DNA from: a candidate division WOR-3 bacterium
GTDB lineage: Bacteria > Hydrothermota > Tepidihabitantia > SM23-42
DNA: 56,436 nucleotides
Direction of reading: 5' to 3'
Assembly (NCBI GenBank): GCA_020341755.1
Contig: CP070834.1
Span: 1 to 56,436, forward strand
Part shown: one piece after another, positions 1,547-44,957 of the stretch
Numbering within the stretch: position 1 is the stretch's first letter
How the letters are laid out: the number at the start of each line of letters is the position of its first letter
Made by a program: the position numbers and the translations under genes
The notes under the pieces: model-generated
What the model saw: the letters and a program-made list of their open reading frames with translations, nothing else
Database searches by the model: none
What the model was told of the DNA's origin: nothing

Positions 1547-3964
1547 TCACTTAAGGGTCTCCGTTGTGATCTCAAACAGGAATTTACCCCGGCCACCTTT
1601 ACTGTCCTTTATTTCACCGGTTTCATCTATTTCCAGGTCGTACATGCCCAGCATGATCTTCAAACTCCCCGCGCGCGTGTACTCCTGTCCTATCTGACTC
1701 ACAAATATTTTGTACAGATCGAGGATAAATCCCCGTCTGGAGAATTTCTGGTTGATCCAGTACTCGAGCCCCTGTTCCACATCAAGCAACAGCGGATCTA
1801 TGCTCAGACCGGCATCGCTCAGGAATGAAAATTTGTTGACGTTCAGCAGAAGATTGTACACCGTTGCGTCATCGCACATTACGGTCGATTTTGATTTTGC
1901 CTTCACCTTCGAATAGAAATTCGCTTCCCTGACGAGCATGCCCGTCAGATCGAGCTCTTCAAAAGCATTTTTCTCTAAATATAACTCTTTTGGGTATACA
2001 CCTGATGCAATACCTACTCCGATCTGGAAAATCGATTGGTATGCCGGTGGAAGGGTCGCATACGTTGCTCCCTCAAAACTAATCTTTCGCTCCTCACCCT
2101 CACGGAACCAGTCCTTGTATCTATCGATGTTATCCTGAACGAATGCCCGTGCCTGTTTCACCATTTCGATCCCGCTTCGCACTGCGTTAAGGGCACTTCC
2201 CGGTTTCAGTTCGGACGTTTCACCCCGCTTTATCTCATTGTGGTTCGCTGTGAACAGAACGATTCCGCCGTCACCGGTATCTTTTATTGGAATACCACCA
2301 TACTTCTCTACTGCCGAAAGCATTGACTCCTGGAAGAAATTCCTTATTTCACTCTCGACCTTTGCATCTCTCAGCTTCGTACCCATGAATGTTGAACCAC
2401 GGATGTCATAAATGAGGACCGAGACGAGATCCTTGTAACGGTTAACCGTGAGTTCGGAAACCTTGTGAGGAGTATCAATGACCTTAACGTCTTTTTCGAT
2501 AACATTTACACGCCCGGCAAGGGCCTCCTCGGCGACATAGCGCACGCTGTCCTGCGAAACGACACCTGAAAGTTTTGGATAATACTCAACAAGTTCCTCC
2601 ATAAGCAATGTTCTGATGAGAGGTCGTATCACACGTTGGGTAATACTTCGGAATGTTTCCATGATCAATCGTGTATCATAACGATCTTTCAAGAACCCGG
2701 TCACCCGGTACTTGTATAATACGTCGGTCCCGTGCTTTTCTGCTTTGATCTCCGACATGACATTTTTTACGAGAACCTGCATCTGTTCATCGGTGACGGT
2801 CAGGTCAGGATTATGCAACAAAATGATAAAAGGATCCCATTCATTTTTCACGACGAACTGCAGTAGATCGGTTGTTTTAAAATCCACGATCGCCTTCAAC
2901 TCTTTCTCTTTATTTACGTAATCAAGATACTGATTCCTCAGAATACGCAGATCGTACCCGTTCGTGATAAGATTGCGTCGCAGATTTTTAATTTTATTAT
3001 CGATCGCTGTTTCATTCGAAAATTTTTCCACCAGAATCGTGAGCTGTTCCTTCATTGATTCGGTGACATCTTTCGTTTTCTGCTTTATCGCACGCATCTG
3101 CTGTTCAACGGATTCCTTTCGCTGCACGATATCGCTGAGCATTTCCCGTGCTCTCACTCTCAAAAGATTGAGAACTTCTTCGAGTGTCTTCTCGTCAGGA
3201 AAGAAAAAGTGAGACCGGAAGACATCGAGAATTGCTGCCTTGCTCAAAAGCGGCACCCGCTCAATGCTATTTATCACGGTTGTCTTTGTGTCGGTATAGT
3301 ACGTAGTCATAATGGCTTTTGCTACCGCCGTATAAAGGGCGCCCGGCAATCCCTTGTCGAGAAAGGATTTCGCCAGAAGGCGCATCGTCTCGGAATAACC
3401 GCAGCGCGGTATGAAGGGTATTTTTTCATAGCTGTTACTGATGAGTTCATCGACAGCGGCATTATCTTTGGAACTGGCATGCCTGAGGTAACTGAATAGC
3501 TGGTTCACGACCACCCCGAAGCGCTCTGCTATAACGATCTTCCGATCGATCGGATCGCTCACGATGTGCTGGGTGATAAGATCTCGTATGAGTTTGCGGG
3601 TCACGATCTCAAAAATGATCATCCGGTCGGTAATGCCCTCCACGAATCTCTGATAGATCTCGGATAATTGTGAACTGTACCGTTCAAAAAAACTTTCCCA
3701 TTGGTCTACCGAGCACTCATCGGATATAAAACTTCTGTACTGCGCGACGAATTCCTGCTGAAGCGCAAAAATCTTGCGTCCAAGAAAAACCAATTCCTTG
3801 CCGCCGCGTTCACTCACCCGTGCGATAAAACCGTCACTCTTTGAGATGTTCCGTAGAATAGCGACATATCGGTTGAAGGTCTTTGTATCCCGGTAGGTCT
3901 CTGTCATCTGCCGGTAGTATGGTGTATCGAGTATCAGGATGTCTTCGAATTCAGTTCTTCGCAT
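1547..3964 (-). CDS. Large cytoplasmic protein: ~550-aa uncharacterised helical/coiled-coil N-terminal region plus a divergent class III adenylate/guanylate cyclase-like catalytic domain
   Basis: 812-aa ORF in the track. I prefer ATG 3964 (MRRTEF...), which has AAGGA 7 nt upstream, over TTG 3985. Cyclase-homology signatures are LIYDIRGST (first metal Asp), KDTGDGGIVLF (second metal Asp) and IGVGIASGVY. No TM segments. Confidence 0.7.
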   Translation of the reverse strand: MRRTEFEDILILDTPYYRQMTETYRDTKTFNRYVAILRNISKSDGFIARVSERGGKELVFLGRKIFALQQEFVAQYRSFISDECSVDQWESFFERYSSQLSEIYQRFVEGITDRMIIFEIVTRKLIRDLITQHIVSDPIDRKIVIAERFGVVVNQLFSYLRHASSKDNAAVDELISNSYEKIPFIPRCGYSETMRLLAKSFLDKGLPGALYTAVAKAIMTTYYTDTKTTVINSIERVPLLSKAAILDVFRSHFFFPDEKTLEEVLNLLRVRAREMLSDIVQRKESVEQQMRAIKQKTKDVTESMKEQLTILVEKFSNETAIDNKIKNLRRNLITNGYDLRILRNQYLDYVNKEKELKAIVDFKTTDLLQFVVKNEWDPFIILLHNPDLTVTDEQMQVLVKNVMSEIKAEKHGTDVLYKYRVTGFLKDRYDTRLIMETFRSITQRVIRPLIRTLLMEELVEYYPKLSGVVSQDSVRYVAEEALAGRVNVIEKDVKVIDTPHKVSELTVNRYKDLVSVLIYDIRGSTFMGTKLRDAKVESEIRNFFQESMLSAVEKYGGIPIKDTGDGGIVLFTANHNEIKRGETSELKPGSALNAVRSGIEMVKQARAFVQDNIDRYKDWFREGEERKISFEGATYATLPPAYQSIFQIGVGIASGVYPKELYLEKNAFEELDLTGMLVREANFYSKVKAKSKSTVMCDDATVYNLLLNVNKFSFLSDAGLSIDPLLLDVEQGLEYWINQKFSRRGFILDLYKIFVSQIGQEYTRAGSLKIMLGMYDLEIDETGEIKDSKGGRGKFLFEITTETLK

Positions 3965-4919
3965 TATATTTCCTTTTTGCGGCAAGATGCTCCTGAAAGG
4001 TCTCAGAGAAATGGTGTCGGCCGTTCCCCATCGAAACGAAATAGAGATAATCTGCTTCTGCCGGGTTCACGACCGCCCTGATTGAACTTTCTCCTGGAGA
4101 GCAGATCGGTCCCGGAGGTAAACCTGTATGCAGGTATGTATTGTACGGCGAGTCGAGTTTAAGGTCTCGCTCAAGTAGCCGCTGTTTGGAATGGTACTTC
4201 TCGAAATCCAGCAACTTGAGGGCATACAGTATCGTTGCGCACGACTCCAGCGGTCTGTCCTTCACGAGCCGGTTAATGAAGACCCTGGCGATAAGCGCTC
4301 GTTCCTCATCGACCTGCGCCTCTTTCTCAACCAACGATGCGAGGGTCACTACGGAAAAAAGACTGTCAGGTTCATCGAAAGATAGATCTCCACAGTGCCG
4401 CTTAAAGTTACTGACAAATGCCTTCACGACATCGCTGTCATTCTGACGATGACTGAAACTATAGGTATCGGGGAACAGATAACCCTCGAGTGATGCGGCG
4501 GGTACGCCGAGTTCCTGTGCAAACACAGGATTTGTGCACAGCGATAAGAATGTCTCCCGATCGATAATTCCTTCGACGGCAAGAATATCGGCAACCTGAT
4601 GCATGGTCAATCCTTCAGGGATGGTCACCATAATATCGGAACGTCCGCCGCGCGTCAGGTGGGATATCACGTACAGGGGATTTCTATACGTATCGAGTTC
4701 ATACATCCCTGATTTTAATTTCTTTTCATTACCGGTAAGCCGGAGCCAGAAAAGGAACTCATCACGGTCCCTGACAGCGTGTTGTGAAGACAGGTAATCG
4801 GTTATTTCCTTTGCACTGGCACCCTCGGGTATTGTTACCGCCGTCCTTCCGACCCGTATCGGTTGCCACCACACGATCAAAATGATCAGGAGTACGCCGA
4901 GGGCAATGAGTTGTTTCAT
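3951..4919 (-). CDS. mltG: Endolytic murein transglycosylase MltG (YceG family)
   Basis: N-terminal TM helix, LASLVEKEA and YNTYLHTGLPPGPICSPG motifs. ATG 4919 overlaps the ruvX stop as ATGA. The track ORF extends to 4931. Confidence 0.9.
   Translation of the reverse strand: MKQLIALGVLLIILIVWWQPIRVGRTAVTIPEGASAKEITDYLSSQHAVRDRDEFLFWLRLTGNEKKLKSGMYELDTYRNPLYVISHLTRGGRSDIMVTIPEGLTMHQVADILAVEGIIDRETFLSLCTNPVFAQELGVPAASLEGYLFPDTYSFSHRQNDSDVVKAFVSNFKRHCGDLSFDEPDSLFSVVTLASLVEKEAQVDEERALIARVFINRLVKDRPLESCATILYALKLLDFEKYHSKQRLLERDLKLDSPYNTYLHTGLPPGPICSPGESSIRAVVNPAEADYLYFVSMGNGRHHFSETFQEHLAAKRKYNAKN

Positions 4920-20898: not shown

Positions 20899-20902
<4 letters not shown>
19769..20902 (+). CDS. 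FAD-dependent oxidoreductase (DAO family; sarcosine oxidase beta / glycine oxidase-like)
   Basis: AIIIGGGIIGCAAGYYLSRKG dinucleotide-binding motif, ~377 aa. Confidence 0.8.
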
Positions 20903-22004
<1,102 letters not shown>

Positions 22005-33490: not shown

Positions 33491-36079
33491 ATGATACATG
33501 GTCTCATTGCCCTTGCCATCATAAGCAGTATCAGCGGTAAGATCCAGGGCACCGTAACCGATGAGCAAACCGGCGAGCCCATTGCCTATGTCGATGTCAT
33601 GCTGGTCGGCACCGAACGAGGCGCTGCAACAGATGAACGAGGTAACTTTTACTTACTCGATGTTCAGGCAGGAACATACACGGTCGAAGTGTCCTGCCTG
33701 GGTTACGGCACGAAGATCATCGAAGACGTTCGTGTTGAAATTGACCAGACTGCACGCTTGTACGTTTCTCTAAAACAAACACCTATCGAGATCGCCCCCG
33801 TTACCGTCACCAGCGAACTGCCACCCGTGAAAAAAGATATGATCGGTACAACCTATATCGTCCGGAAAGACGAACTCACGACACTACCGATCGATTACAC
33901 GACCGAACTCGTTGCTTTCCAACCGGCGGTGGCGCGCGCCGATACGGCACTCCATGTCCGCGGTGGACGGGCGACCGAGGTTCTGTATCTGATCGACAAT
34001 GTCTCGATCCTCGACCCCCAAACCGGTGACCCCGCTATCTATGTCTCGAAAGGCGTGATCGACGAGATCATCTTCCTGCCCGGCGGATTCGATGTGGAAT
34101 ACGGCAGGGCGATGTCCGGCGTGATCAATCTGATAACAACATTCCCCTCGGACAGACTCCGCGCTCGGGTCTACGGAAAAACCGAGCGCATCATGCCGTT
34201 TTACTATGATTTTGGATATGAAACCTATCAGGGATCCGTGCATCTTCCGATAACAAAGTGGCTGCGCGGATTCGTAGCTGCCGATATGATGCATACTGAC
34301 GACTGGAACCCGCGCTTGTATATTCGGCCCCACAAACAGCGTGACGATTACTCCTTGTATGGCAAACTGTTCATAACGCCTTCCAACAACCTCAAACTCA
34401 CGGCAAGTACTGCCCTGTCGCGCATGCAGTTCGACCGGTACAACACACGATGGATGTTCAATCTCGACAATTACCGTTCAGACATGCGAAAGGGTGACCT
34501 CGAGGTCGTGACCATGAGATTCCTGCCGGACCAGCGCAAGCTCTTTTCACTCACCCTGAGCCGGCTTAATACCACGCGCACGTACGGTGTGAGAGAACCC
34601 GGTGATACTGACCCGTTTACAGATTTCACGTTCAAGGAGTATCAAACACTGCAATGGCCCCACAGCAGTAACAATAATCCGTTCGGTGCGGATTTGCCCG
34701 CTCTTCCGATCGAGGGTGACTATCAAGAGTATCAGGTAAAAACATCAGAAGTCATGAGGGCAAACTTCAATTCAATCCTCCAGCTCCATGAATATCATGA
34801 ATTTAAAATAGGTGGTGAGTACACCTATCAGGAGTTCGATAATTTCACCTATTTCATCAGTGATTCTGTGAATCCCACTATTGACGAGTATCAATATGCT
34901 CCGCGGGAATACGCTGCGTATATTCAGGATAACATCGATTACCAGGGGCTCTATGCAAAACTGGGATGCCGGATCGATTATTTTGATAAGGACCCCCGGG
35001 ATGTCATTCTACCGGGCAGCAATGACACCGTGAATGTAGAGCCGGTTCTCGCGGTCTCGCCGCGCATCGGTTTTTCTTTCCTCGTGACGGAGAATTTTTT
35101 GTTCCGGGCAAATATCGGCCGTTATGTCCAACCGCCTCTCTACGATTACATGTACAGTTACTACAGTTTAGTACCATTTCCTCCCTATATTAATTTCGTA
35201 CCGCTCATCGGTAATCCCCTGCTCGAACCCGAGATCACCATGAGCTATGAGATCGGTCTCCAGGGTCAGGTTACGGAGAACATGAGTCTTACGGTTAATG
35301 CCTTTAACAAAGATGTCAGCAATCTTATCGGTTCTGTATTCACAGAATATGATGTCGATCAGCACTATGCGCAGTACGGAAATATCGAGTTTGCCAATGT
35401 CAGGGGTATCGAGACGATCTTCGAGTTCGTCGATAATATCTTCGCTGGTAAAATATCGTACACCCTGTCCTGGGCGCGCGGCACGAGCTCCTATGCATCC
35501 GAGGTCTGGTTTCAGTATTATTACTATCAAGACTACGATCCGGAAATGCTGTTCACGCCTGCTTCCCAGGATTATTACCTTGATTTTGACCAGCGCCACC
35601 GCATCTTCCTCCAGGGTATGGTCAATCTTCCGGCTCAGTTCCAATTCTTCGTGCTCGGGTATCTGGGCAGCGGATTTCCCTACACACCGCCTGGTGAGAT
35701 CGGCAAGACCGAGGACCGCAACACCCTCCGGCTCACATTCCAGCGCCAGATCGACTGCGTACTGAGCAAGACGTTCACTATCGCCGGCCTGAAACTAGAT
35801 GCCCAGTTCGAAGTCATCAATCTCCTCGACGCCCGCTATGAAATCACTACGCATTATCCCATCATCAGACTCGAGGCCATTAAACCCTGGGATTTTGAAG
35901 ATTTCATTCCGATCGGCAATCCATACTACCACCCGGCAGCCGATGAGAATCATGACGGCCTGGTCACGCCTGACGAGGATTACCGCGCGTACAGGGATTG
36001 TGTTGCCGCGACCGATGACTGGATCAATGCAAATTCTGCGCCGCGCAGGGCACGCATAGGAGTCTCTGTGCAACTGTAA
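33491..36079 (+). CDS. TonB-dependent receptor-like outer-membrane beta-barrel with N-terminal CarboxypepD_reg domain
   Basis: GKIQGTVTDEQTGEPIAYVDVMLVGTERGAATDERGNFYLLDVQAGTYTVEVSCLGYG (carboxypeptidase-regulatory-like fold), a plug-like region, and a long aromatic-rich barrel. Confidence 0.8.
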   Translation: MIHGLIALAIISSISGKIQGTVTDEQTGEPIAYVDVMLVGTERGAATDERGNFYLLDVQAGTYTVEVSCLGYGTKIIEDVRVEIDQTARLYVSLKQTPIEIAPVTVTSELPPVKKDMIGTTYIVRKDELTTLPIDYTTELVAFQPAVARADTALHVRGGRATEVLYLIDNVSILDPQTGDPAIYVSKGVIDEIIFLPGGFDVEYGRAMSGVINLITTFPSDRLRARVYGKTERIMPFYYDFGYETYQGSVHLPITKWLRGFVAADMMHTDDWNPRLYIRPHKQRDDYSLYGKLFITPSNNLKLTASTALSRMQFDRYNTRWMFNLDNYRSDMRKGDLEVVTMRFLPDQRKLFSLTLSRLNTTRTYGVREPGDTDPFTDFTFKEYQTLQWPHSSNNNPFGADLPALPIEGDYQEYQVKTSEVMRANFNSILQLHEYHEFKIGGEYTYQEFDNFTYFISDSVNPTIDEYQYAPREYAAYIQDNIDYQGLYAKLGCRIDYFDKDPRDVILPGSNDTVNVEPVLAVSPRIGFSFLVTENFLFRANIGRYVQPPLYDYMYSYYSLVPFPPYINFVPLIGNPLLEPEITMSYEIGLQGQVTENMSLTVNAFNKDVSNLIGSVFTEYDVDQHYAQYGNIEFANVRGIETIFEFVDNIFAGKISYTLSWARGTSSYASEVWFQYYYYQDYDPEMLFTPASQDYYLDFDQRHRIFLQGMVNLPAQFQFFVLGYLGSGFPYTPPGEIGKTEDRNTLRLTFQRQIDCVLSKTFTIAGLKLDAQFEVINLLDARYEITTHYPIIRLEAIKPWDFEDFIPIGNPYYHPAADENHDGLVTPDEDYRAYRDCVAATDDWINANSAPRRARIGVSVQL

Positions 36080-36080
36080 G

Positions 36081-36527
36081 ATGGAAGTATTTATGAGAGA
36101 ATCTTGTTCATTAAAGAACCACAGGTACGCAGCTTGTATTATAATAGTTTTAATAAGCATATCGATTCTGGCGTGCCGGGACCCACAAGATTTCCAGCCA
36201 GATGACCCGTACACAGAAGCACCTGCGCCGCCCGACTTCATATATCCGCTCCCGGACACGACGGTCAATGGTACGGTGGTCAGTGTCTATTTCAGCTGGA
36301 ACGCAGTTGCCAGGGCAGAATCGTACGAGATACAATACGACACGTCTTTGACCTGGCCCAGTGACTGGCGGCAGACCGCGACCGCATCACCGTGTTATAT
36401 CTCGGTACGCCGATATGCTTATACCACGGTGTATTACTGCCGCATTCGTGCGCTCAGCGCATCCTGGCTGGAGGGACACACCGAGTGGTCGCAAACAAGA
36501 AAGTTCTTCGTAAAACCTGAGGGATAA
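36081..36527 (+). CDS. Fn3-like lipoprotein, paralog A
   Basis: Lipobox ISILAC. PDDPY...WNAVARAESYEIQYDTSL...YYCRIRALSASWLEGHTEWSQTRKFFVKPE aligns closely with the next gene. Confidence 0.7.
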   Translation: MEVFMRESCSLKNHRYAACIIIVLISISILACRDPQDFQPDDPYTEAPAPPDFIYPLPDTTVNGTVVSVYFSWNAVARAESYEIQYDTSLTWPSDWRQTATASPCYISVRRYAYTTVYYCRIRALSASWLEGHTEWSQTRKFFVKPEG

Positions 36528-36593
36528 GAGCATTATGTGTAATACTATAATAAAGGATATGATCAAATCATTTTCAGGAGGTGCAATATTTAT

Positions 36594-37013
36594 TTGAGGA
36601 AGAAAATCATCTGGACATGCTTTGCGTTGTATATGGCTCTGGCACTGAGTTGTAAGGACCCGACCGGCTATGAACCTGACGATCCCTATGTTCCTACGCC
36701 TGATCCGCCGACCATTGTGTATCCCGTCGCTGATACATCATTCAATGCTACAATCGGAGTACCGATCATGGTCCTGTTCGACTGGACCGCGGTCTCAGGT
36801 GCAGAAGCATATGAAATACAGCACGATACCGCACTAACCTTCCCCACAGATACGAGTGATGTCGTCCAGGCAGCACCTGCGTACCTTGCGTTTTACCGAT
36901 ATACCTATATCACCACCAGTTACTACAGGATCAGAGCGCTCAGTGCTTCGTGGGAAGAAGGGCATACCGAATGGTCGGAAACACGGAGATTTTATATCAA
37001 ACCAGAATCCTGA
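36594..37013 (+). CDS. Fn3-like lipoprotein, paralog B
   Basis: Lipobox ALALSC. PDDPY...WTAVSGAEAYEIQHDTAL...YYRIRALSASWEEGHTEWSETRRFYIKPE. TTG start after AGGAGG. Confidence 0.7.
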   Translation: MRKKIIWTCFALYMALALSCKDPTGYEPDDPYVPTPDPPTIVYPVADTSFNATIGVPIMVLFDWTAVSGAEAYEIQHDTALTFPTDTSDVVQAAPAYLAFYRYTYITTSYYRIRALSASWEEGHTEWSETRRFYIKPES

Positions 37014-37037
37014 TGTATTGTCTTGGAGATCATGAGT

Positions 37038-37889
37038 ATGACCCTTGGCGAGCCTGTCTTTCTGCGTAATTTAAAACTATTCCCGATCCATGACGACCAC
37101 CCCTCTTCGGGTAACGGCAACTATACCACTGTTGATGAAGTGCTGAAGTCTAAAAAAGGAGCATTTCACGAACTCGATACTCCCGACATCAACACGATCA
37201 GTTTCGAGAATGATTCTGACTCACCGGTCGTCATGATCGATGGCGAGGAAATCACCGGAGCATTCCAGAACCGCATCATCGCTGCGTCATCCCTCGTTGA
37301 GAGCCACACTTCCCGTGAGCTAGCCGTAATCTGCGCAGAGGAAGGACGTTGGAACGAGATCGGCGGCTTTCGCAGCGGACAGTGTTCGTATCCCCGGCTG
37401 CGTTCGGTCTTGGCCAAATCCCGTAGTCAGAAAAAGGATGCACAGCAGCATGTCTGGAACGAGATCGAAAGAAAACTGACCGTCACGAAGACCCGTTCGA
37501 CAACATCATCCATGCATGACATCTTTGTCTCGCTCGATGACGAAGTCCATCGTTACCTGGAAGGATTCACGGGTCTCGATGGTCAAACGGTCGGCTTCAT
37601 AGGCTGTGCCGGTGACCGCATTCTCGGATGTGATATTTTCTGCCAACCCTCGCTGTACCGCAATTTTGAAAAAAAACTCATCAGAAGTTATGCACTCGAT
37701 GCACTCGAATACCAACGGACTGCGAACCGCCCACTGGATGTCACTCGTTTCCTTGACAGCATTAGCAAAGCGCTTCACGCCAGAAGTATCCGCAGACGTC
37801 ACATGCACATAACGACGAAGATTGTGAGAGGACAGGCCCTCGTGCACAATAAGCGACCCGTCCATGTTTCGGCGTTCCCTGCACGGTGA
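37038..37889 (+). CDS. ARPP-1 / DUF6569-like protein (assignment from remembered motif pattern)
   Basis: NLKLFPI, VVMIDGEEITGAFQNRI, ICAEEGRWN, VWNEIERKL, GQTVGFIGCAGDRILGCDIF and KLIRSYALDALEY follow the motif order I associate with this family. The start is ambiguous (TTG 37023, ATG 37032, ATG 37038). GGAG lies 9 nt before 37038. Confidence 0.6.
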   Translation: MTLGEPVFLRNLKLFPIHDDHPSSGNGNYTTVDEVLKSKKGAFHELDTPDINTISFENDSDSPVVMIDGEEITGAFQNRIIAASSLVESHTSRELAVICAEEGRWNEIGGFRSGQCSYPRLRSVLAKSRSQKKDAQQHVWNEIERKLTVTKTRSTTSSMHDIFVSLDDEVHRYLEGFTGLDGQTVGFIGCAGDRILGCDIFCQPSLYRNFEKKLIRSYALDALEYQRTANRPLDVTRFLDSISKALHARSIRRRHMHITTKIVRGQALVHNKRPVHVSAFPAR

Positions 37890-37934
37890 AACGCTTCACC
37901 CTGCAGGATGTTACCATAAACGACCCCTCATGCC

Positions 37935-40472
37935 ATGCTGGCGAAGAAACTCGGTAAGTACGAAATAATAGATTGGCTCGGGGGCGGTCGGTTTGGTGAT
38001 GTCTTTCTTGCCCGTGATACACTGCTCGATCAACAGTTCGCTCTGAAGATCGCCCGAATGAGAAAAGAAGAAATATCCATGCTACAGGATGAGGCGAAGC
38101 TCCTGTCCGGGCTCAATCACGTCGGGATCGTACGCTTCTACAATATCGATTTCATCGATGAAAAATTCGTCCTGGTGATGGAGTATGTGAAGGGAGCGTC
38201 GTTGCGTGAGATCATACCGGAACAGGGGCTTACAGTGGACCAGGCATGCTCGATCGGTCAACAAATTTCTGACGCGGTAGCATACGCCCATAATAAAAAG
38301 GTACTTCATCGTGATCTCAAACCCGAGAACATCCTGCAGGAGGGTTCCGGAGAGCCCGTGGTGAAGATAACAGACTTTGGTCTGGCGCGCTTCATAAAAT
38401 CAGGTTCACTCTCGGCATCGACGGCAGGAACACCGATCTATATGGCGCCAGAGGTATGGTCTGGTGATTTTTCTGACAGATCTGACATATGGAGCATTGG
38501 CGCTATACTCTATGAAATGCTCACCGGCGTGCCGCCATTTCTCTCGGACAATCTAACCGACTTGCAGCGAAAAATCGAGATGAATAAATTCCTCCTGCCG
38601 ACAATGGTTCGTTCAGCCGTTCCGGAGTACCTGGAACATATCATAGCAAAATGTCTGAAATCCAATCCCGATGCACGACCAACAGCCGAGGAATTGTCCG
38701 CGATGATGAACTATCAGGGGACTCCGATACGGGTTACGCCGGCCATTCGTGGAACCGAAAAAGAATCCCCCGCCTTGGATCTCACACCAGCCCAGCGGGA
38801 AATAATGGAATCTGTACCAGGAAAAGTACTGCTCCTGGGGCAGGCTGGTTGTGGCAAAACAACCACACTCACCCACGCAGTCCTCAAACTGCTGGACAGT
38901 GGCGTTCCCGATTCCAACATCCTCATCTCCACGTTCACCAACAAAGCGGCTCATGATATTAAAAACAGGCTCACCCGGCACATCGGAACCGTTTCACATG
39001 AGCTATGGCTGGGAACACTACACACCCTGGCACTGAGAATACTGCGTCGTGATGCCGCGCGGCTTGACCTGAGCGATGACTTCACGATCGTGCATCCCGC
39101 AGATGTTGTATCGGGGATGAAAACCAAACCAGGGAAGCATCAGGTACGAGCTATGCTCCAGTACATCGGCAAGCTAAAAGCCCACAATATTCTCCCTGAA
39201 CGGTTTACCCCAAAAACCAAATGGGAAAAAGCGTGTCACCTGTTTTACCGCCAATACCAGGATCGCCTGTCAGCGGGCAGCATGGCCGACTTCGATGATC
39301 TCATCATATTGGCGGTGCGCCTTCTCCAGGACCACGAGGATGTACGTTCATTCTATCAGAACCGGTTCAATCATGTTTTTGTTGACGAACTGCAGGATAT
39401 CAACCCTGCTCAGTATCGCTTGATCACGCTCCTGGCGGACAGTTCGGTATTCATGACCGGTGATGAGGATCAATCGATCTATGGATGGCGGGGAGCGGAT
39501 AGAACTATCCTCCATCATGTCGATGATGATTTTCCCGGCATCAAGACCTTTACCCTGACAAAAAGTTTCAGGCTGCCGCAGGCGATACTCGAAATAGCAA
39601 ACCATCTCATGCTCCGCAGTGCAACCGCTGTCCCGACATATGAAACCGGTGATATCCTGGTATATGCAGCCAAGACCGAGAATGACGAGGCGAACTATAT
39701 TATCAATGAAATTAAACGCCTGACAAAAAAACAATTCAGCTATGGTGATATCGCGGTACTCTACCGCGTTAATTACATATCGCGAATCTATGAAGAGGCC
39801 TTTGTCAAGGCACGCATTCCCCATACATTGATCGGCGGTTCCTCATTTTATGACCGTTCTGACATAAAACCGCTGATAGAATATCTAGAGTTGATCGAAC
39901 GTCGTGCAGCGGAAACTCCATCTCCTAAAGAAAATACCGGGACGTTACTTCCTCTTGCACTTGCCCTGTTTAAGATCGGCAAGCAGAAAAAAGACCGTGC
40001 TGCCGCAATCATAACGTACCATCTTGAGCATCGCAACATGCTTGCGCCGGCACGCGTGATCGGTGATATCGTCGATGTGGTCGGGCTGCGCGGTGAGAAC
40101 ATCGATGAACTCATAGCGCTTGCCCGAGGATTCAGTCATCTCGGACTCTCGGATTTTCTCAATGAAGTTCGCCTCGTGCAGGAACTGGATCTGTCTGAGT
40201 GGGGTAAGAATACGGTCAAACTGCTGACCGTCCATAGTGCAAAGGGTCTCGAGTTCCCCGTAGTGTTCCTTGTCGACCTGATCGAAGATGTCTTCCCGCT
40301 CACCAAGAAAATGGCGTCCGGAGAGGACATCGACGAAGAACGGCGGCTGTGTTATGTAGCGCTCACCCGTGCGCAGAAGAAACTATACCTCCTCTACCCG
40401 AAAAGGAGATATGGTCGTTTTCAGCAACCGTCCCGTTTCCTGCTCGATATGTTCAAAAAGGATACACAGTAG
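37935..40472 (+). CDS. Fusion protein: N-terminal Hanks-type Ser/Thr protein kinase + C-terminal UvrD/Rep-family SF1 helicase
   Basis: Kinase motifs: LGGGRFGDVF, FALKIA, HRDLKPENIL, DFGLARF, GTPIYMAPE. Helicase motifs: GQAGCGKTT (Walker A), FVDELQDINPAQ (motif II), TKSFRLPQ, TVHSAKGLEFPVVFL, CYVALTRAQKKLYL (motif VI). One uninterrupted 845-aa ORF. Confidence 0.85.
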   Translation: MLAKKLGKYEIIDWLGGGRFGDVFLARDTLLDQQFALKIARMRKEEISMLQDEAKLLSGLNHVGIVRFYNIDFIDEKFVLVMEYVKGASLREIIPEQGLTVDQACSIGQQISDAVAYAHNKKVLHRDLKPENILQEGSGEPVVKITDFGLARFIKSGSLSASTAGTPIYMAPEVWSGDFSDRSDIWSIGAILYEMLTGVPPFLSDNLTDLQRKIEMNKFLLPTMVRSAVPEYLEHIIAKCLKSNPDARPTAEELSAMMNYQGTPIRVTPAIRGTEKESPALDLTPAQREIMESVPGKVLLLGQAGCGKTTTLTHAVLKLLDSGVPDSNILISTFTNKAAHDIKNRLTRHIGTVSHELWLGTLHTLALRILRRDAARLDLSDDFTIVHPADVVSGMKTKPGKHQVRAMLQYIGKLKAHNILPERFTPKTKWEKACHLFYRQYQDRLSAGSMADFDDLIILAVRLLQDHEDVRSFYQNRFNHVFVDELQDINPAQYRLITLLADSSVFMTGDEDQSIYGWRGADRTILHHVDDDFPGIKTFTLTKSFRLPQAILEIANHLMLRSATAVPTYETGDILVYAAKTENDEANYIINEIKRLTKKQFSYGDIAVLYRVNYISRIYEEAFVKARIPHTLIGGSSFYDRSDIKPLIEYLELIERRAAETPSPKENTGTLLPLALALFKIGKQKKDRAAAIITYHLEHRNMLAPARVIGDIVDVVGLRGENIDELIALARGFSHLGLSDFLNEVRLVQELDLSEWGKNTVKLLTVHSAKGLEFPVVFLVDLIEDVFPLTKKMASGEDIDEERRLCYVALTRAQKKLYLLYPKRRYGRFQQPSRFLLDMFKKDTQ

Positions 40473-40481
40473 AAACGCCTG

Positions 40482-41108
40482 CTACATCATTTTTCTCTTT
40501 CTGACATACAGGATAATTAATATGGCTGCCAGTGGAATGAGGGCGGCGGTCACGATGAGGTTGTACTGTTTGAGAAAACGTGCGGCTTCCTGCCAGGACG
40601 AACCAACATAGAACCCTGCGGATACCAGGAAGAGATTCCACAGCATAACACTCAGAAGGCTCAGCCAGAAAAACACGGTACTCTTCACATCGACCATACC
40701 TGCAGCAAAACAGATCGGCGCACGCATGCCCGGCAGGAAACGGTTGAGAAAGACGACTACCGGACCGCGCCGAGAAAATGCCCTCTGCGCCCTTTCGATC
40801 ATCTTGAGTGGAAAGAACCTGCTCATCCATGATGTGGTCATTATGTGAACAAGCCGCTCGCCCTTTTTCTTACCCAGCCAGTACAATATCATGATACCGG
40901 TTATGCTTCCAATGACCGTACCGAAATATACTGCAAAGGGATTAAAACTTCCACGACCGGCAAGGTAGGCAAAAATGAGTACGACCGCATCTGACGGGTA
41001 GGGAGGGAAAAGGCTCTCGACGCATGCATTGCACAGCAGGAACAGATAGACGACGAGGGGATCTCGACCAGCTATCCAATCAAATACAGAAACGAGCCAA
41101 TCAAACAC
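40482..41108 (-). CDS. DedA-family (VTT domain) membrane protein
   Basis: ESLFPPYPSDAVVLIFAYLAG and FLPGMRAPICFAAG motifs, multiple TM helices. Confidence 0.82.
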   Translation of the reverse strand: MFDWLVSVFDWIAGRDPLVVYLFLLCNACVESLFPPYPSDAVVLIFAYLAGRGSFNPFAVYFGTVIGSITGIMILYWLGKKKGERLVHIMTTSWMSRFFPLKMIERAQRAFSRRGPVVVFLNRFLPGMRAPICFAAGMVDVKSTVFFWLSLLSVMLWNLFLVSAGFYVGSSWQEAARFLKQYNLIVTAALIPLAAILIILYVRKRKMM

Positions 41109-41195
41109 TGCTGCACGCTCTACGGTTGACTAGTGCTGCGCTTCTTGAAGTATACGGTCATTGCAGGCTGCCGTCCCGTTTCCGAACCGGTTTTT

Positions 41196-42926
41196 TCATA
41201 AAGTAATATCAAGCTGGACGCCGATATGTTTTTCCAGGGCAGCCTCTTGGTCGCGGAGTGAATATTTTATGCTGAATTTCAAACCATCTATCGGTTTAGC
41301 CGACAGGTAAAGAAATCCATAGTAACCGCTGTAGTATAACATTCGATTATTGATGATACCTGGCAGATCGATCTCGTAGGCGTAAATGCGCGAGGCATAT
41401 GAATCCGTGTCGAAATGACCGAACCTCACCCGGAGGTCCCACCGCCGGAAATCCAGACCGCATTCCAGAGCCCCAAACAGTCCTCGTTCGAGTACGCCGT
41501 CTTCATATACGTATTTATCCTCGAGCCGGACATCGAAGAAGAATACCCGGAACGGTTTAACCCGGAAGAAAACCCGTGAACCCGAGCGCTGGCTTTCATC
41601 TTCGGTAAACCGCCAGCGCAGCTGCAGTTTCGCATAGGCGATACCCAGCGAACGTTCGACACTCACCTGTACACCATAGCGTTGTGGATCCTCATCTGTG
41701 GCGTCGTCAAGGGTGAAGAGGAAACCGATATCTGCGATCGGTAGATGACCATCCACCGCGAGTTGACCGCCGACATAATCATCGCGAGCCTCGATTCCTT
41801 TTGGAGAGTAAAATCCAGCCGGGAAGTATTTAGCCGCGAGATTGACATCCAGTATCGAATAATATCCGCTGATCCCGAAAACACCCCCGACCCGATTGCG
41901 GAACGAACGTGCGCACTCAGCGAACATAACCATTAACTCATCATTATATTTCAAACCGACGCTGGTAAGCCAGAATCTGGAGCCGTAAAATTTTGCGCTC
42001 GAATCATCACACACAAAACCAGGAGTGTATGAGCACCAGTATGTTCTATTCGCGATCTCCCACTGCGGCTGTCGATACGTAACATTATACCCGATAATTT
42101 CCTCATTGATCCTGTCCTTCTTAGCTTCTGTCAGGGAATCGACATGGTCGCCCGAAAGATAAAACGAGGTCGCGTTACCTGCACTGTCGACGGTCCCGTC
42201 CATATCCTGGTTCGAATAGAACAGGGTGTAGCCTATCACAGACGTATCGCTCAGCGCCGCGCCAAAGAACCCACTATTTTCGTTCACCGAGGTATACGGC
42301 AGAACACCACGTTCTTTCGTGAGCACGCGGAAATCAACCGTTTGGAAAAAAGACCCCAGGGGCGACAGCGCAACACCCGACCCGAAATCGAGATTATATT
42401 TGCCCAGTACGAAAGAACGCCCGCCATCCGTGTGCAAGATACCTCCTGCATAATAATCGAACAGATTATCCTCCAGAGGATCTCTTTCCGTAAGAAAATA
42501 TACGTGATATCCGCCCAGATATACTTCTGACCGTGTATAGTACTCATGGACTGCTTGTTCCGATGGGATATCGGTCGTGCCGCGCATTCTCATCGAAAAT
42601 TTCTTGAACTCCAGAGACTTCCTTCCGACGGTCACGTAGGATCTGATACGTTCGATAAACATGTTATCGATACCGGGGATATTCTTCAGGTCATCCAACG
42701 AATGATATGGCCCATGAGCCTGGCGGTACTCGATGATCCTCATACAATCGGACACCGTAAAATAAGGAATGGCACCAAGTTCCTCAAGGCCTGCTGTATT
42801 GATGTCGACCGGTCGGAGCATCAGATATTCAAGGTCGCGAACGATTATTTCCAGGTCTCGTGGATCGTCGGTCTGGAACAGTTCGTGACCATCGACAGAC
42901 AGGACGATGAGGAACAGAATTATCAT
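41196..42926 (-). CDS. ComEA-like helix-hairpin-helix domain fused to a large predicted beta-barrel/beta-rich domain
   Basis: INTAGLEELGAIPYFTVSDCMRIIEYRQAHGPYHSLDDLKNIPGIDNMFIERI (tandem HhH). The remaining ~470 aa are rich in alternating aromatic/Gly beta-strand patterns. ATGA overlap with the upstream gene. Confidence 0.65.
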   Translation of the reverse strand: MIILFLIVLSVDGHELFQTDDPRDLEIIVRDLEYLMLRPVDINTAGLEELGAIPYFTVSDCMRIIEYRQAHGPYHSLDDLKNIPGIDNMFIERIRSYVTVGRKSLEFKKFSMRMRGTTDIPSEQAVHEYYTRSEVYLGGYHVYFLTERDPLEDNLFDYYAGGILHTDGGRSFVLGKYNLDFGSGVALSPLGSFFQTVDFRVLTKERGVLPYTSVNENSGFFGAALSDTSVIGYTLFYSNQDMDGTVDSAGNATSFYLSGDHVDSLTEAKKDRINEEIIGYNVTYRQPQWEIANRTYWCSYTPGFVCDDSSAKFYGSRFWLTSVGLKYNDELMVMFAECARSFRNRVGGVFGISGYYSILDVNLAAKYFPAGFYSPKGIEARDDYVGGQLAVDGHLPIADIGFLFTLDDATDEDPQRYGVQVSVERSLGIAYAKLQLRWRFTEDESQRSGSRVFFRVKPFRVFFFDVRLEDKYVYEDGVLERGLFGALECGLDFRRWDLRVRFGHFDTDSYASRIYAYEIDLPGIINNRMLYYSGYYGFLYLSAKPIDGLKFSIKYSLRDQEAALEKHIGVQLDITL

Positions 42927-43639
42927 TGAAAAAACGTGATCAGGAAAAGATGTGACAGTCCAAGGTATTGATGGTTTGTCCCGCTATACTGGATGCTGAT
43001 GGCGCCGACGATGAAGGTCGCGCTGCAATCGATATACAGGGGATCGCTGTTGACCCCGATGCCGAACATCACGGCATGATACGGCGCATAGGTTGCACCA
43101 AATGAGAAAAATGGCATCGACAGTTCAATGCTACTGACGGCGCACCGCACGGTCAGGAACTGCTCGGGTTGGTACATGACATTCATCGAATAACATGGCG
43201 GGATGTAATCGATCGAGGATAACCGCGGAACCGTCAGATTCCGTACCCACGCACCCGCGAAAAAGATTGTACTCTGGAAATGTGCTCCGAGATGAGCCGA
43301 ATAGGTCGACTGATCTTCGCTCTCGAACACGGATTGTTGATAGAGCACCAGTTCACCTCCGAGCGACATACCGTAGGCCGTAGAGAAACATCCCCCTGCG
43401 GTCAGCATGTTTTCACGGTACAGATCATCCCCGAAACTCTGCATACCGATATGAAAGCGGCTTACGCTGACATGACCGCTGTAGGTACGCAGACCCGGAA
43501 TGCCGAAATGGCTGCGGGTACCGAACTGAAAAGCGAAACGACCAGACGACGGTACTGCCGGGTTATAATATTCCTCCAGGATGATGCTGCGGGGAAACAG
43601 CATCGATTCAAATGCAGCGACGAGTGCGATAATAAACAT
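42923..43639 (-). CDS. Hypothetical beta-rich (putative outer-membrane) protein
   Basis: 238-aa ORF with short alternating hydrophobic strands and an aromatic C-terminal region (...LFLITFFQ). No family recognised. Confidence 0.5.
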   Translation of the reverse strand: MFIIALVAAFESMLFPRSIILEEYYNPAVPSSGRFAFQFGTRSHFGIPGLRTYSGHVSVSRFHIGMQSFGDDLYRENMLTAGGCFSTAYGMSLGGELVLYQQSVFESEDQSTYSAHLGAHFQSTIFFAGAWVRNLTVPRLSSIDYIPPCYSMNVMYQPEQFLTVRCAVSSIELSMPFFSFGATYAPYHAVMFGIGVNSDPLYIDCSATFIVGAISIQYSGTNHQYLGLSHLFLITFFQ

Positions 43640-43666
43640 GGTGGGAAGATTACAGCACAGCGGCGA

Positions 43667-44923
43667 TCAGACAGAATCCTCACACTCGACGTGTAAGGTC
43701 ATCTCCGATACGCTCGTGACTTTAATCTTGCTGTTCTTCTTTATGGGACTGTCACTCACCGCACTCCAGAATTCTCCATGAACAAACACGGTCCCTCCTT
43801 TGGCTGATATGTCGGTCCTGGCAACGCCGATCTCGCCGACAATCCCCTCCTTTCCCGTTACCCGTTTCTTGAACTGAGCACGTATTCCCAGAAGTGCGAT
43901 GATCAAAAATATACCAGCAACTACAGCAACTACGACCACGATTACCTCCCATGATATTCTTAAGAACGGAACATCACTCTCAAACAGAATTAATGAGCCA
44001 ATAATGAGCGACACGATGCCGCCGATCGTTAAAATGCCGTGCGACGTGATGTATATCTCCAGTATGAACAAAATAGCAGAGAGGACGATGAGTGCGACTC
44101 CTGCATAGTTCACGGGGAGCACATGCAGTGCATAGAACGCCAGTATGAGGCTGATACCTCCAACCACACCGGGGAAAATCATGCCGGGACGCTGCAGTTC
44201 GAAGAATAGACCGTAGAAACCCAGTATCAAAAGTATGTACGCTATATTCGGATTCGTCAGAAGCAGGAGCAAGCGCTCCTTGAGCGTCATGGAAATTACG
44301 CGCGGGGTGATCCCCTGTGTCCTGAAGGTATATGTTTCTTCCGCCACATCAACAGTCCGACCATCGAGTTTCGCTAATAGTTCATCAATATCCTTCGCCA
44401 GTATTTCGCATACGCCTAGTTTCACAGCAGTTTCTGCATCGACCGAGGCACTCTCCCTAACAGATTGTTCGGCCCACTGTATATTGCGGCCCCGCTCCCT
44501 GGCGATCGACTGCAGATAGGCAACGGCATCATTGGTCACTTTCTCGACCATCACGCTGTCGATCTCTCCTCCACCCATGTTTACCGGGTGAGCCGCACCG
44601 GTATTCGTTCCCGGAGCCATAGCGGCTATGTGGCTCGCATATAATATGAACACTCCCGCCGATGCCGCCCGCGCACCGCTCGGTGCTATGTATACGGTAA
44701 CCGGGATTTTGGCATTGAGTAGCGCCTTGGTGATCTCGCGCATGGAAACATCGAGACCACCGGGCGTATCGAGGGTGATGATCAAACATTGAGCACGATC
44801 TTCTTCTGCAATGCGTAATGCTCTCAGCAGGTATGAACTGCTTGCGGGACTGATTACGCCCTCGAGCTCGGCGACCACTACGCTGCCGGTTGCGAACATC
44901 AACCACAGATGTAATAATGCCAT
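43667..44923 (-). CDS. nfeD: NfeD-family membrane-bound ClpP-class serine protease
   Basis: LDTPGGLDVSMREI and the ClpP-like fold, central TM block, C-terminal OB-fold NfeD domain. ATG 44923 (MALLHLWLMF...) is favoured by the promoter position. The track starts at TTG 44947. Confidence 0.85.
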   Translation of the reverse strand: MALLHLWLMFATGSVVVAELEGVISPASSSYLLRALRIAEEDRAQCLIITLDTPGGLDVSMREITKALLNAKIPVTVYIAPSGARAASAGVFILYASHIAAMAPGTNTGAAHPVNMGGGEIDSVMVEKVTNDAVAYLQSIARERGRNIQWAEQSVRESASVDAETAVKLGVCEILAKDIDELLAKLDGRTVDVAEETYTFRTQGITPRVISMTLKERLLLLLTNPNIAYILLILGFYGLFFELQRPGMIFPGVVGGISLILAFYALHVLPVNYAGVALIVLSAILFILEIYITSHGILTIGGIVSLIIGSLILFESDVPFLRISWEVIVVVVAVVAGIFLIIALLGIRAQFKKRVTGKEGIVGEIGVARTDISAKGGTVFVHGEFWSAVSDSPIKKNSKIKVTSVSEMTLHVECEDSV

Positions 44924-44929
44924 CAAAAA

Positions 44930-44957
44930 ATGATAGTCAAATATCAAAACAAGTCAA
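44930..44957 (-). promoter_or_regulatory. Sigma70-type promoter, leaderless configuration, for nfeD operon
   Basis: Minus strand reads TTGACT (44957-44952), 16 nt, TATCAT (44935-44930). ATG 44923 is 6 nt downstream. Confidence 0.6.

Follow-up and report, generated by a model that had tools for sequence, protein, structure and literature searches.

The Hanks-type Ser/Thr kinases of bacteria are usually coupled to sensors of the membrane or cell wall, and the DNA helicases PcrA and UvrD carry a Tudor domain that mediates their contacts with RNA polymerase and other partners. One Hanks kinase tied to DNA, YabT of B. subtilis, is described in PMC3708118 as being activated by DNA, phosphorylating RecA and having DNA-repair proteins as its targets. 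The ARPP domain is unrelated to characterised folds, and a Cys and a Gln are among its absolutely conserved residues; it was proposed to act on sugar moieties, possibly through covalent cross-links like those of the SRAP domain, and has been described in four contexts, i.e., ARG-centred ADP-ribose systems, HIRAN (a binder of DNA 3' ends), a WYL transcription factor and a sugar deacetylase (Iyer, Burroughs and Aravind 2022, PMC9503650). Here, we report on 56,436 nucleotides from a candidate division WOR-3 bacterium (contig CP070834.1, the whole of which stretch we call the window) where a single gene on the + strand (37935..40472) encodes a Hanks kinase fused to a UvrD-like helicase and directly follows a gene of the ARPP-1 (DUF6569) family. 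The kinase, helicase and ARPP domain families are all known, and the fused proteins are already present in public databases under generic names ("UvrD-helicase domain-containing protein", "DNA 3'-5' helicase"). Our literature search found no paper on a Hanks kinase–UvrD fusion or its pairing with ARPP, and only PMC9503650 was found relevant to ARPP-1/DUF6569. The pair is an undescribed two-gene module, and what it acts on is probably DNA.

The fusion gene is one open reading frame (ORF) with an ATG start and encodes 845 amino acids plus a stop codon, without any stop inside its translation. Its domain matches in Pfam are far beyond chance and comprise Pkinase at residues 9-255 (E 2e-56, 191.7 bits versus a gathering threshold of 31.7), UvrD-helicase (PF00580) at residues 283-534 (E 7e-64, 216.6 bits) and UvrD_C (PF13361), which reaches residue 821 (E 4e-48, 165 bits). 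A first-pass annotation of the window had reported an intact kinase and an intact helicase in one uninterrupted polypeptide, and all of the motifs that it quoted are indeed present: LGGGRFGDVF (15-24), FALKIA (35-40), HRDLKPENIL (125-134), DFGLARF (147-153) and GTPIYMAPE (165-173) in the kinase, and GQAGCGKTT (302-310), FVDELQD (482-488), TVHSAKGLEFPVVFL (765-779) and YVALTRAQKKLYL (807-819) in the helicase. The reading frame is open across the junction of the two halves (nt 38700-38780), and the same junction is found in all of the more than 120 full-length homologues described below.

These homologues were obtained by searching 5.8 billion proteins (clusters at 90% identity) and form more than 120 clusters of 831-873 amino acids with 100% query coverage and 47-96% identity, each with a Pkinase and a UvrD domain. 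Their source assemblies are from NCBI, JGI, ENA and Logan and include complete genomes of 1.9-2.8 Mb, and those members that are named belong to candidate division WOR-3 or TA06. About 30 more full-length clusters of 830-913 amino acids that share the architecture down to 32% identity were obtained when 1.8 billion cluster representatives (clusters at 50% identity) were searched exhaustively with HMMER; the named members of two of them are Candidatus Stahlbacteria/TA06 and metagenome-assembled genomes (MAGs) labelled Thermosulfidibacter takaii/Aquificota. After the fused family, the HMMER matches were ordinary PcrA/UvrD proteins (helicase part only) and giant multi-kinase proteins. Scanning genome contigs with the family alignment (generic patterns HRDLKPEN and DQ[AS]IYGWR) gave, among the matches listed, only PcrA/UvrD/Rep genes of other phyla with 30-35% identity over the helicase part. 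The architecture had been called unusual, which holds in that no description of it was found; it is not rare, being the rule in WOR-3 and extending to TA06/Stahlbacteria and the Thermosulfidibacter takaii/Aquificota-labelled MAGs.

The kinase domain (residues 9-255; 37959..38699, + strand) was delimited by its Pfam match, conservation and fold, and has a complete catalytic set, i.e., the Gly-rich loop (G16/G18/G21), the VAIK Lys (K38), the alpha-C Glu (E53), HRD-x-K-x-x-N (H125-R126-D127-K129-N132), DFG (D147-F148-G149), APE (P172-E173), the subdomain IX Asp (D184) and the subdomain XI Arg (R248). We followed conservation in one alignment of 70 homologues at 48-84% identity and another of 20 homologues reaching 31%, and the catalytic residues of kinase and helicase alike are invariant in both. 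In the latter, G16, G18, K38, E53, H125-R126-D127, K129, N132, D147, G149, T166, E173, D184 and R248 of the kinase are invariant, as are G302, G305, G307, K308, D484, Q487, D488, D510, F545-R546, R611, G771, E801-E802, R804 and T811-R812 of the helicase. The first-pass view that both halves keep their catalytic residues is thus upheld across the family, and the kinase half is by its sequence a catalytically complete RD-type (Arg-Asp) Hanks Ser/Thr kinase with predicted activity. Mean pairwise identity is 66% for the kinase, 24% for the linker, 57% for the N-terminal helicase part, 35% for the 2B-like region and 72% for the C-terminal part of subdomain 2A. The kinase is therefore better conserved than the N-terminal part of the motor that it is attached to, which argues that it is under strong selection and no decaying appendage.

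These results also bear on whether the fusion is an artefact, that is, a chimeric assembly, a stop codon lost between adjacent genes or a decayed pseudo-kinase appendage. The sequence of the window is not free of errors: tgt, for one, probably carries a homopolymer frameshift at about 21421-21431. Against this stand the more than 120 independent full-length homologues of the same length and junction, the roughly 30 additional clusters at 50% identity with the same architecture and a kinase with invariant catalytic residues throughout, which belongs to the best-conserved regions of the fusion. Because the homologues come from separate assemblies, complete genomes among them, both a chimeric assembly and a lost stop codon (the two faults for which a check had been proposed at first pass) are excluded, and we regard the artefact explanation as vanishingly improbable and refuted by homologue counts and residue conservation.

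The activation loop (residues 147-173) includes the Ser/Thr-rich stretch SGSLSAST, and the loop of most family members follows the pattern SGS[IL]SAS[TS]AGTP. One subclade (e.g., P0104, P0107, P0117 and P0119) has an Asp/Glu-containing loop in place of SGS[IL]SAS[TS], such as …SGVLVDDRAGTP or …RLPEEGAAGTP (residues 153-166 of the window protein). This distribution suggests that most family members are regulated by phosphorylation of the loop, while the Asp/Glu subclade may be independent of it.

The helicase half begins with subdomains 1A and 1B and the N-terminal part of 2A (residues 283-655; 38781..39899, + strand), which were assigned by Pfam UvrD-helicase and by alignment to PcrA and contain the Q motif (Q287), motifs I (GQAGCGKT), Ia (TFTNKAA), II (DELQD), III (TGDEDQSIYGWRGA) and IV (FR) as well as R611. 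A shortened, all-helical 2B-like subdomain follows (residues ~656-755; 39900..40199, + strand; from the PcrA alignment and a structural model in which its helices span 668-747), and the C-terminal part of 2A (residues 756-845; 40200..40469, + strand; from the PcrA alignment) carries motifs V (TVHSAKGLE) and VI (EERRLCYVALTR). All motifs of superfamily 1A (SF1A) helicases, i.e., Q, I, Ia, II, III, IV, V and VI, are therefore intact, with conserved positions at Q287, G302-T309, T335-A338, D484-D488, G509-A521, F545-R546, T765-E773 and E801-R812. The alignment covers residues 12-403 and 508-640 of the 724 residues of PcrA and leaves 63 residues of the fusion unaligned in 2B versus 104 in PcrA (its residues 404-507); the 2B-like region is also the least conserved folded part of the fusion protein. 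No Pfam match to the Tudor domain of PcrA/UvrD (PF21196) is found in the fusion, while the canonical PcrA protein P0282 has one, and the fusion ends 33 residues after R812, the last invariant residue of motif VI. Its scores stay below the NCBIfam equivalog cut-offs for pcrA (TIGR01073, 423.8 versus 911), uvrD (TIGR01075, 346.9 versus 1144) and rep (TIGR01074, 355.8 versus 951). By these low scores, the absence of the Tudor domain and the short 2B, this is a trimmed PcrA/UvrD-like SF1A motor and no standard orthologue; the initial label of a UvrD/Rep helicase is thus right about a complete SF1A motor and needs correction as to its type.

An AlphaFold2 (AF2) model built from the 70-sequence alignment has a mean predicted local distance difference test (pLDDT) score of 82, with values below 50 only in the activation loop (151-164) and the linker (261-280). 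In a Foldseek search, the four-subdomain 1A/1B/2A/2B fold with its shortened 2B matches DNA-bound UvrD, PcrA and Rep with target-normalised template modelling (TM) scores of 0.72-0.75, and no solved chain covering the kinase and helicase together was found. The kinase and helicase modules are well folded in the model, and their mutual arrangement is left undefined by it. The linker between them (residues 256-282; 38700..38780, + strand) was recognised by its variable sequence and low pLDDT and differs widely between family members, yet it has a nearly fixed length of 27-34 residues. As modelled, it is a disordered stretch of about 25 residues that tethers the kinase to the N-terminus of the helicase.

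The strongest functional clue to the fusion protein, which the first-pass annotation missed while getting the fusion itself right, is the gene immediately upstream. It encodes 285 amino acids from the ATG at 37032 (37032..37889, + strand; the ORF opens with a TTG at 37023), matches ARPP-1/DUF6569 in Pfam (PF20208, E 3e-61, 207.9 bits versus a cut-off of 27) and is separated from the fusion gene by a spacer of 45 nt (37890..37934, + strand) that was read directly. An ARPP-1 gene precedes the fusion gene directly and on the same strand in all 11 distinct lineages read, i.e., the window and ten others: the complete WOR-3 genome CP070664.1 (L001; its fusion protein is 59% identical to that of the window), WOR-3-like contigs (L002-4, 52%), TA06 DG_78 (L005/6, 59%), L087 (48%), L088/9 (47%), L090/1 (53%), the MAGs labelled Thermosulfidibacter takaii/Aquificota (L092/3, 34%), TA06 B3 (L094, 41%), L099 (38%) and L100 (36%). 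The spacing ranges from overlaps of 4 nt or 1 nt to 90 nt, which fits co-transcription. ARPP orthologues (48-92% identity) go along with the fusion family, and over 10 loci the identities of the ARPP and fusion proteins drop together from 50/59% to 31/32%. The other flanks are wholly different between deeper lineages, with rpsL-rpsG-fusA in L100, an ABC transporter in L092 and glycosyltransferases in L087. With ARPP-1 upstream in every lineage read, the short spacing and the joint divergence, ARPP-1 and the kinase-helicase form a conserved two-gene operon, which in WOR-3 belongs to the core chromosome. A promoter and terminator scan of 36400-40800 gave no signal above shuffled expectation. In L099, an endonuclease V gene (PF04493; L099 8630-9235) lies 59 nt downstream of the fusion gene on the same strand and is one extra link to DNA-lesion repair.

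The ARPP-1 protein is a predicted Cys/Gln enzyme. Residues G71, G76, Q79, R81, C101, E103, R106, W107, Q138 and W142 are invariant even in comparison with distant plasmid ARPPs, and C101 and Q79 correspond to the conserved Cys and Gln of the family. A patch of S156-x-T158-S159-S160-M-H162 is invariant only in the kinase-linked subfamily and not kept in distant ARPPs. The AF2 model of the protein (pLDDT 86, predicted TM score (pTM) 0.88) places this patch in a lower-confidence loop between two helices. Neither the sequence (searched against the PDB) nor the model (Foldseek against the PDB and BFVD, E <= 1e-3) had a match. Distant ARPP genes were also seen on plasmids, beside DNA-acting genes. 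On a plasmid of Ca. Fervidibacter sacchari (NZ_CP130455.1; L095 5974-12936), the same strand carries, after an ARPP/DUF6569 gene, the gene of an 1131-amino-acid "helicase-related protein", rmuC and a DUF1156 gene, which looks like a plasmid-borne DNA-targeting system. On a Pimelobacter plasmid, the ARPP gene is followed by a small ORF, ARG and a RecB-like nuclease gene.

What the pair does is best read, in our tentative view and with rather less than even confidence, as the processing of DNA lesions joined to signalling, with the translocase carrying the kinase to DNA. In its favour count the intact domains with their invariant catalytic residues, the disordered linker of fixed length, the strict linkage and joint divergence with ARPP-1, the plasmid ARPPs beside helicase and nuclease genes, the subfamily-specific patch of ARPP-1, the Ser/Thr-rich activation loop of most members, the core-gene behaviour described below and the endonuclease V gene of L099. 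The motor would load on single-stranded or damaged DNA where ARPP-1 acts and, from its homology to PcrA/UvrD, would translocate in 3'->5' direction as they do and take the kinase along. Crowding or dimerisation on DNA could then let the kinase domains trans-autophosphorylate their Ser-rich activation loops, so that kinase activation would depend on DNA, and the active kinase would phosphorylate DNA-bound partners. The first candidate substrate is the co-encoded ARPP-1 via its subfamily-specific, exposed S-x-T-S-S-M-H loop, and other candidates are the helicase itself and further DNA-bound proteins. ARPP-1 would mark or process the DNA lesion, e.g., an abasic or ADP-ribosylated site, and the module would couple lesion processing to a phospho-signal or to the removal of an ARPP-DNA adduct. 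The idea raised at first pass that translocation is coupled to phosphorylation, or that autophosphorylation gates the helicase, is a plausible hypothesis.

Several points weigh against this lesion-signalling reading. The tie of the kinase to ARPP-1 or DNA damage is putative, the pTM of the fusion model (0.59) gives no confidence in its inter-domain geometry, and the ARPP-1 fold has no solved relative while its chemistry is itself a prediction. The Ser/Thr patch of ARPP-1 need not be a phospho-acceptor and could have a catalytic or structural role, and the fusion could simply be the housekeeping UvrD of its lineage with an added regulator. The last of these is the main rival and, in our estimate, possible though unlikely: the fusion would be the UvrD/PcrA orthologue that serves excision repair, mismatch repair and fork clearance, its N-terminal kinase would be an autophosphorylation on/off switch, and ARPP-1 would be an unrelated neighbour or a minor accessory. 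It would explain why, among unfused proteins, ordinary PcrA/UvrD helicases come closest (38-44% identity across residues 283-655) and why the best NCBIfam models are those of pcrA, uvrD and rep, and it agrees with a core-gene location and evolutionary rate; besides, no second UvrD-like gene was seen in the sequence read, which comprised parts of WOR-3 genomes. Set against it are scores far under the equivalog cut-offs (424 versus 911 for PcrA), the absence of a Tudor domain that canonical PcrA proteins like P0282 keep, the shortened 2B and a linkage to ARPP-1 that persists in 11/11 lineages across changing flanks, often with overlapping stop and start codons, and is too strict for chance. The best unfused match, P0282, is from Eremiobacterota, and the clusters of the ten top unfused matches have only Brockia or unnamed metagenome proteins as names. 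An evolutionary intermediate could be an ARPP gene accompanied by a kinase gene and a helicase gene of their own, or by a compact helicase that is not fused; neither was found at P0282 (L098) or P0327 (L101-L103), which have no ARPP or kinase gene nearby.

The pair could also be an anti-phage or conflict system whose helicase senses invading or ADP-ribose-modified DNA and whose kinase aborts infection by phosphorylating proteins of the host or the phage, which we consider improbable. ARPP was described within ARG-centred NAD/ADP-ribose conflict systems (PMC9503650), plasmid ARPPs adjoin nuclease and helicase genes and a DUF1156 gene, and PADLOC matches the kinase half to profiles of PD-T4-6 (E 1e-61) and MAD6 (9e-77) and the helicase half to those of GajB (1e-88). 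These profile matches are generic and domain-level, however, with MAD6 at 180 versus a cut-off of 460, and ARPP-1 and the neighbouring genes have no PADLOC match. No ARG, GajA, nuclease or methylase gene lies beside the pair in any locus read; specifically, there is no ARG gene among the Pfam matches of the scanned window ORFs or the precomputed gene lists of related loci. The window is otherwise housekeeping in content, with Obg, DprA, AhcY, MetK, ThrRS, IF3, PheST, MiaA, Cmk, the type IV pilus proteins PilMNOQ/PilD, RuvX and YceG, and GC content is even across the locus without sign of an island. Between the window and two other lineages, the fusion is 59% and ARPP-1 50-52% identical, compared to 58-62% for MiaA, 62% for DprA, 63-71% for PilD, 58% for the TonB-dependent receptor and about 75% for MetK and AhcY, so the pair diverges at the ordinary rate of core genes like MiaA, DprA and PilD. 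Among 72,556 records of plasmids and 50,697 of phages, no place covered >=80% of the fusion protein, and ARPP had no match in the phage collection. Taken together, these observations speak for a core module passed on vertically rather than for a mobile defence system.

A more specific form of lesion signalling, which we think rather doubtful, would be a bacterial DNA-damage checkpoint: ARPP-1 would covalently mark a DNA sugar lesion (abasic or ADP-ribosylated), the translocase would meet the adduct, collision or dimerisation would activate the kinase, and a phospho-signal would pass to ARPP-1, the kinase-helicase itself and other repair or replication proteins. If true, bacteria would have a UvrD-based functional counterpart to the lesion-activated kinases of eukaryotes, and a function would be assigned to ARPP for the first time. 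A kinase permanently fused to an ATP-driven DNA translocase with catalytic residues kept over several deep lineages would directly and physically link DNA transactions to Ser/Thr phospho-signalling in bacteria. The strict pairing is the first DNA-helicase context for ARPP-1/DUF6569, and a defined partner protein makes its proposed SRAP-like role testable. For the regulation of UvrD-family motors, the fusion is also a natural experiment in which the Tudor domain is missing and 2B is trimmed. We rate the interest of the locus as moderate because Ser/Thr signalling is physically tied to a DNA motor and ARPP-1 gains a testable partner.

Between the ARPP-1 gene and the gene of a TonB-dependent receptor (33491-36079) lie two tandem paralogous small genes on the + strand (36081-36527 and 36594-37013) that are lipoprotein-like, with a signal peptide and Cys and a common tail (…YEIQ.DT…RIRALSASW.EGHTEWS.TR.F.IKPE), and without Pfam match. 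Their position is taken by unannotated ORFs of 142-273 amino acids in L002-L006 and by none in L001, and we rejected the two as members of the module because they are absent or different in other lineages. Downstream of the fusion gene, four genes on the - strand (40482-44947) encode a VTT/DedA-like membrane protein, a protein of 576 amino acids with a ComEA-type HHH motif, one of 238 amino acids without family and NfeD; synteny of this block extends to L001 and L005, and the VTT gene alone adjoins the fusion gene in most WOR-3 loci. Farther away, the tRNA-guanine transglycosylase gene tgt (20899-22004, + strand) is split into ORFs at 20899-21450 (Pfam TGT positions 2-166) and 21540-22004 (TGT 207-354), with a third reading frame carrying the TGT sequence on through a poly-A run at about 21421-21431. 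The split reflects a homopolymer frameshift, which is either genuine, making tgt a pseudogene, or an error of sequencing or assembly. An ORF of 812 amino acids on the - strand (1547-3985) matched neither a Pfam nor an NCBIfam model at the thresholds applied.

Compared to the described systems, the kinase-helicase shares with PcrA, UvrD and Rep all SF1A motifs, which are invariant (PDB 1pjr, 3pjr, 2is4, 4c2t and 1uaa), but differs from them in its N-terminal protein kinase, in scores under half of the NCBIfam equivalog cut-offs and in the constant pairing of its gene with ARPP-1; it also lacks the approximately 80 last residues of PcrA, to which the Tudor domain belongs. The kinase half is an RD kinase that is 33% identical to the kinase domain of PknB and has all of the catalytic residues. 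The hydrophobic L31 aligns with L33 of PknB, and S158 and S160 align with the threonines T171 and T173 of its activation loop. Its fold matches that of PknB/Stk1 (Foldseek TM scores of 0.8-0.9; PDB 1o6y, 6b2p and 4eqm). Unlike PknB/Stk1, the fusion has no transmembrane segment, PASTA or other sensor domain and fails the PknB_PASTA_kin cut-off (200 versus 450), and the "sensor" position is instead occupied by a DNA helicase on the C-terminal side.

An assignment to Gabija, MADS or PD-T4-6 was rejected because the PADLOC matches are domain-level and partners are missing. Gabija would have an adjacent GajA (an OLD-family ATPase-nuclease), whereas the neighbours here are ARPP-1 and a VTT-domain gene and none of the 11 related loci has GajA; the match to the MAD6 kinase (NF047741) covers the kinase domain only and scores 179.7 bits, under the equivalog cut-off of 460. 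The fusion differs from all three in its core-genome context and rate and its absence from the mobile elements searched. With YabT it shares the concept of a Hanks kinase tied to DNA, and we claim no homology beyond the kinase domain: YabT is a membrane protein that binds DNA via a short motif, while the fusion kinase is covalently joined to an ATP-driven translocase and paired with ARPP-1. To the ARPP systems described previously (PMC9503650), the locus is linked by an upstream gene that is a clear ARPP-1 member with the conserved Cys and Gln, and its kinase-UvrD partner, which is not among the published neighbourhoods, is a DNA-acting protein as in the published pairing with HIRAN.

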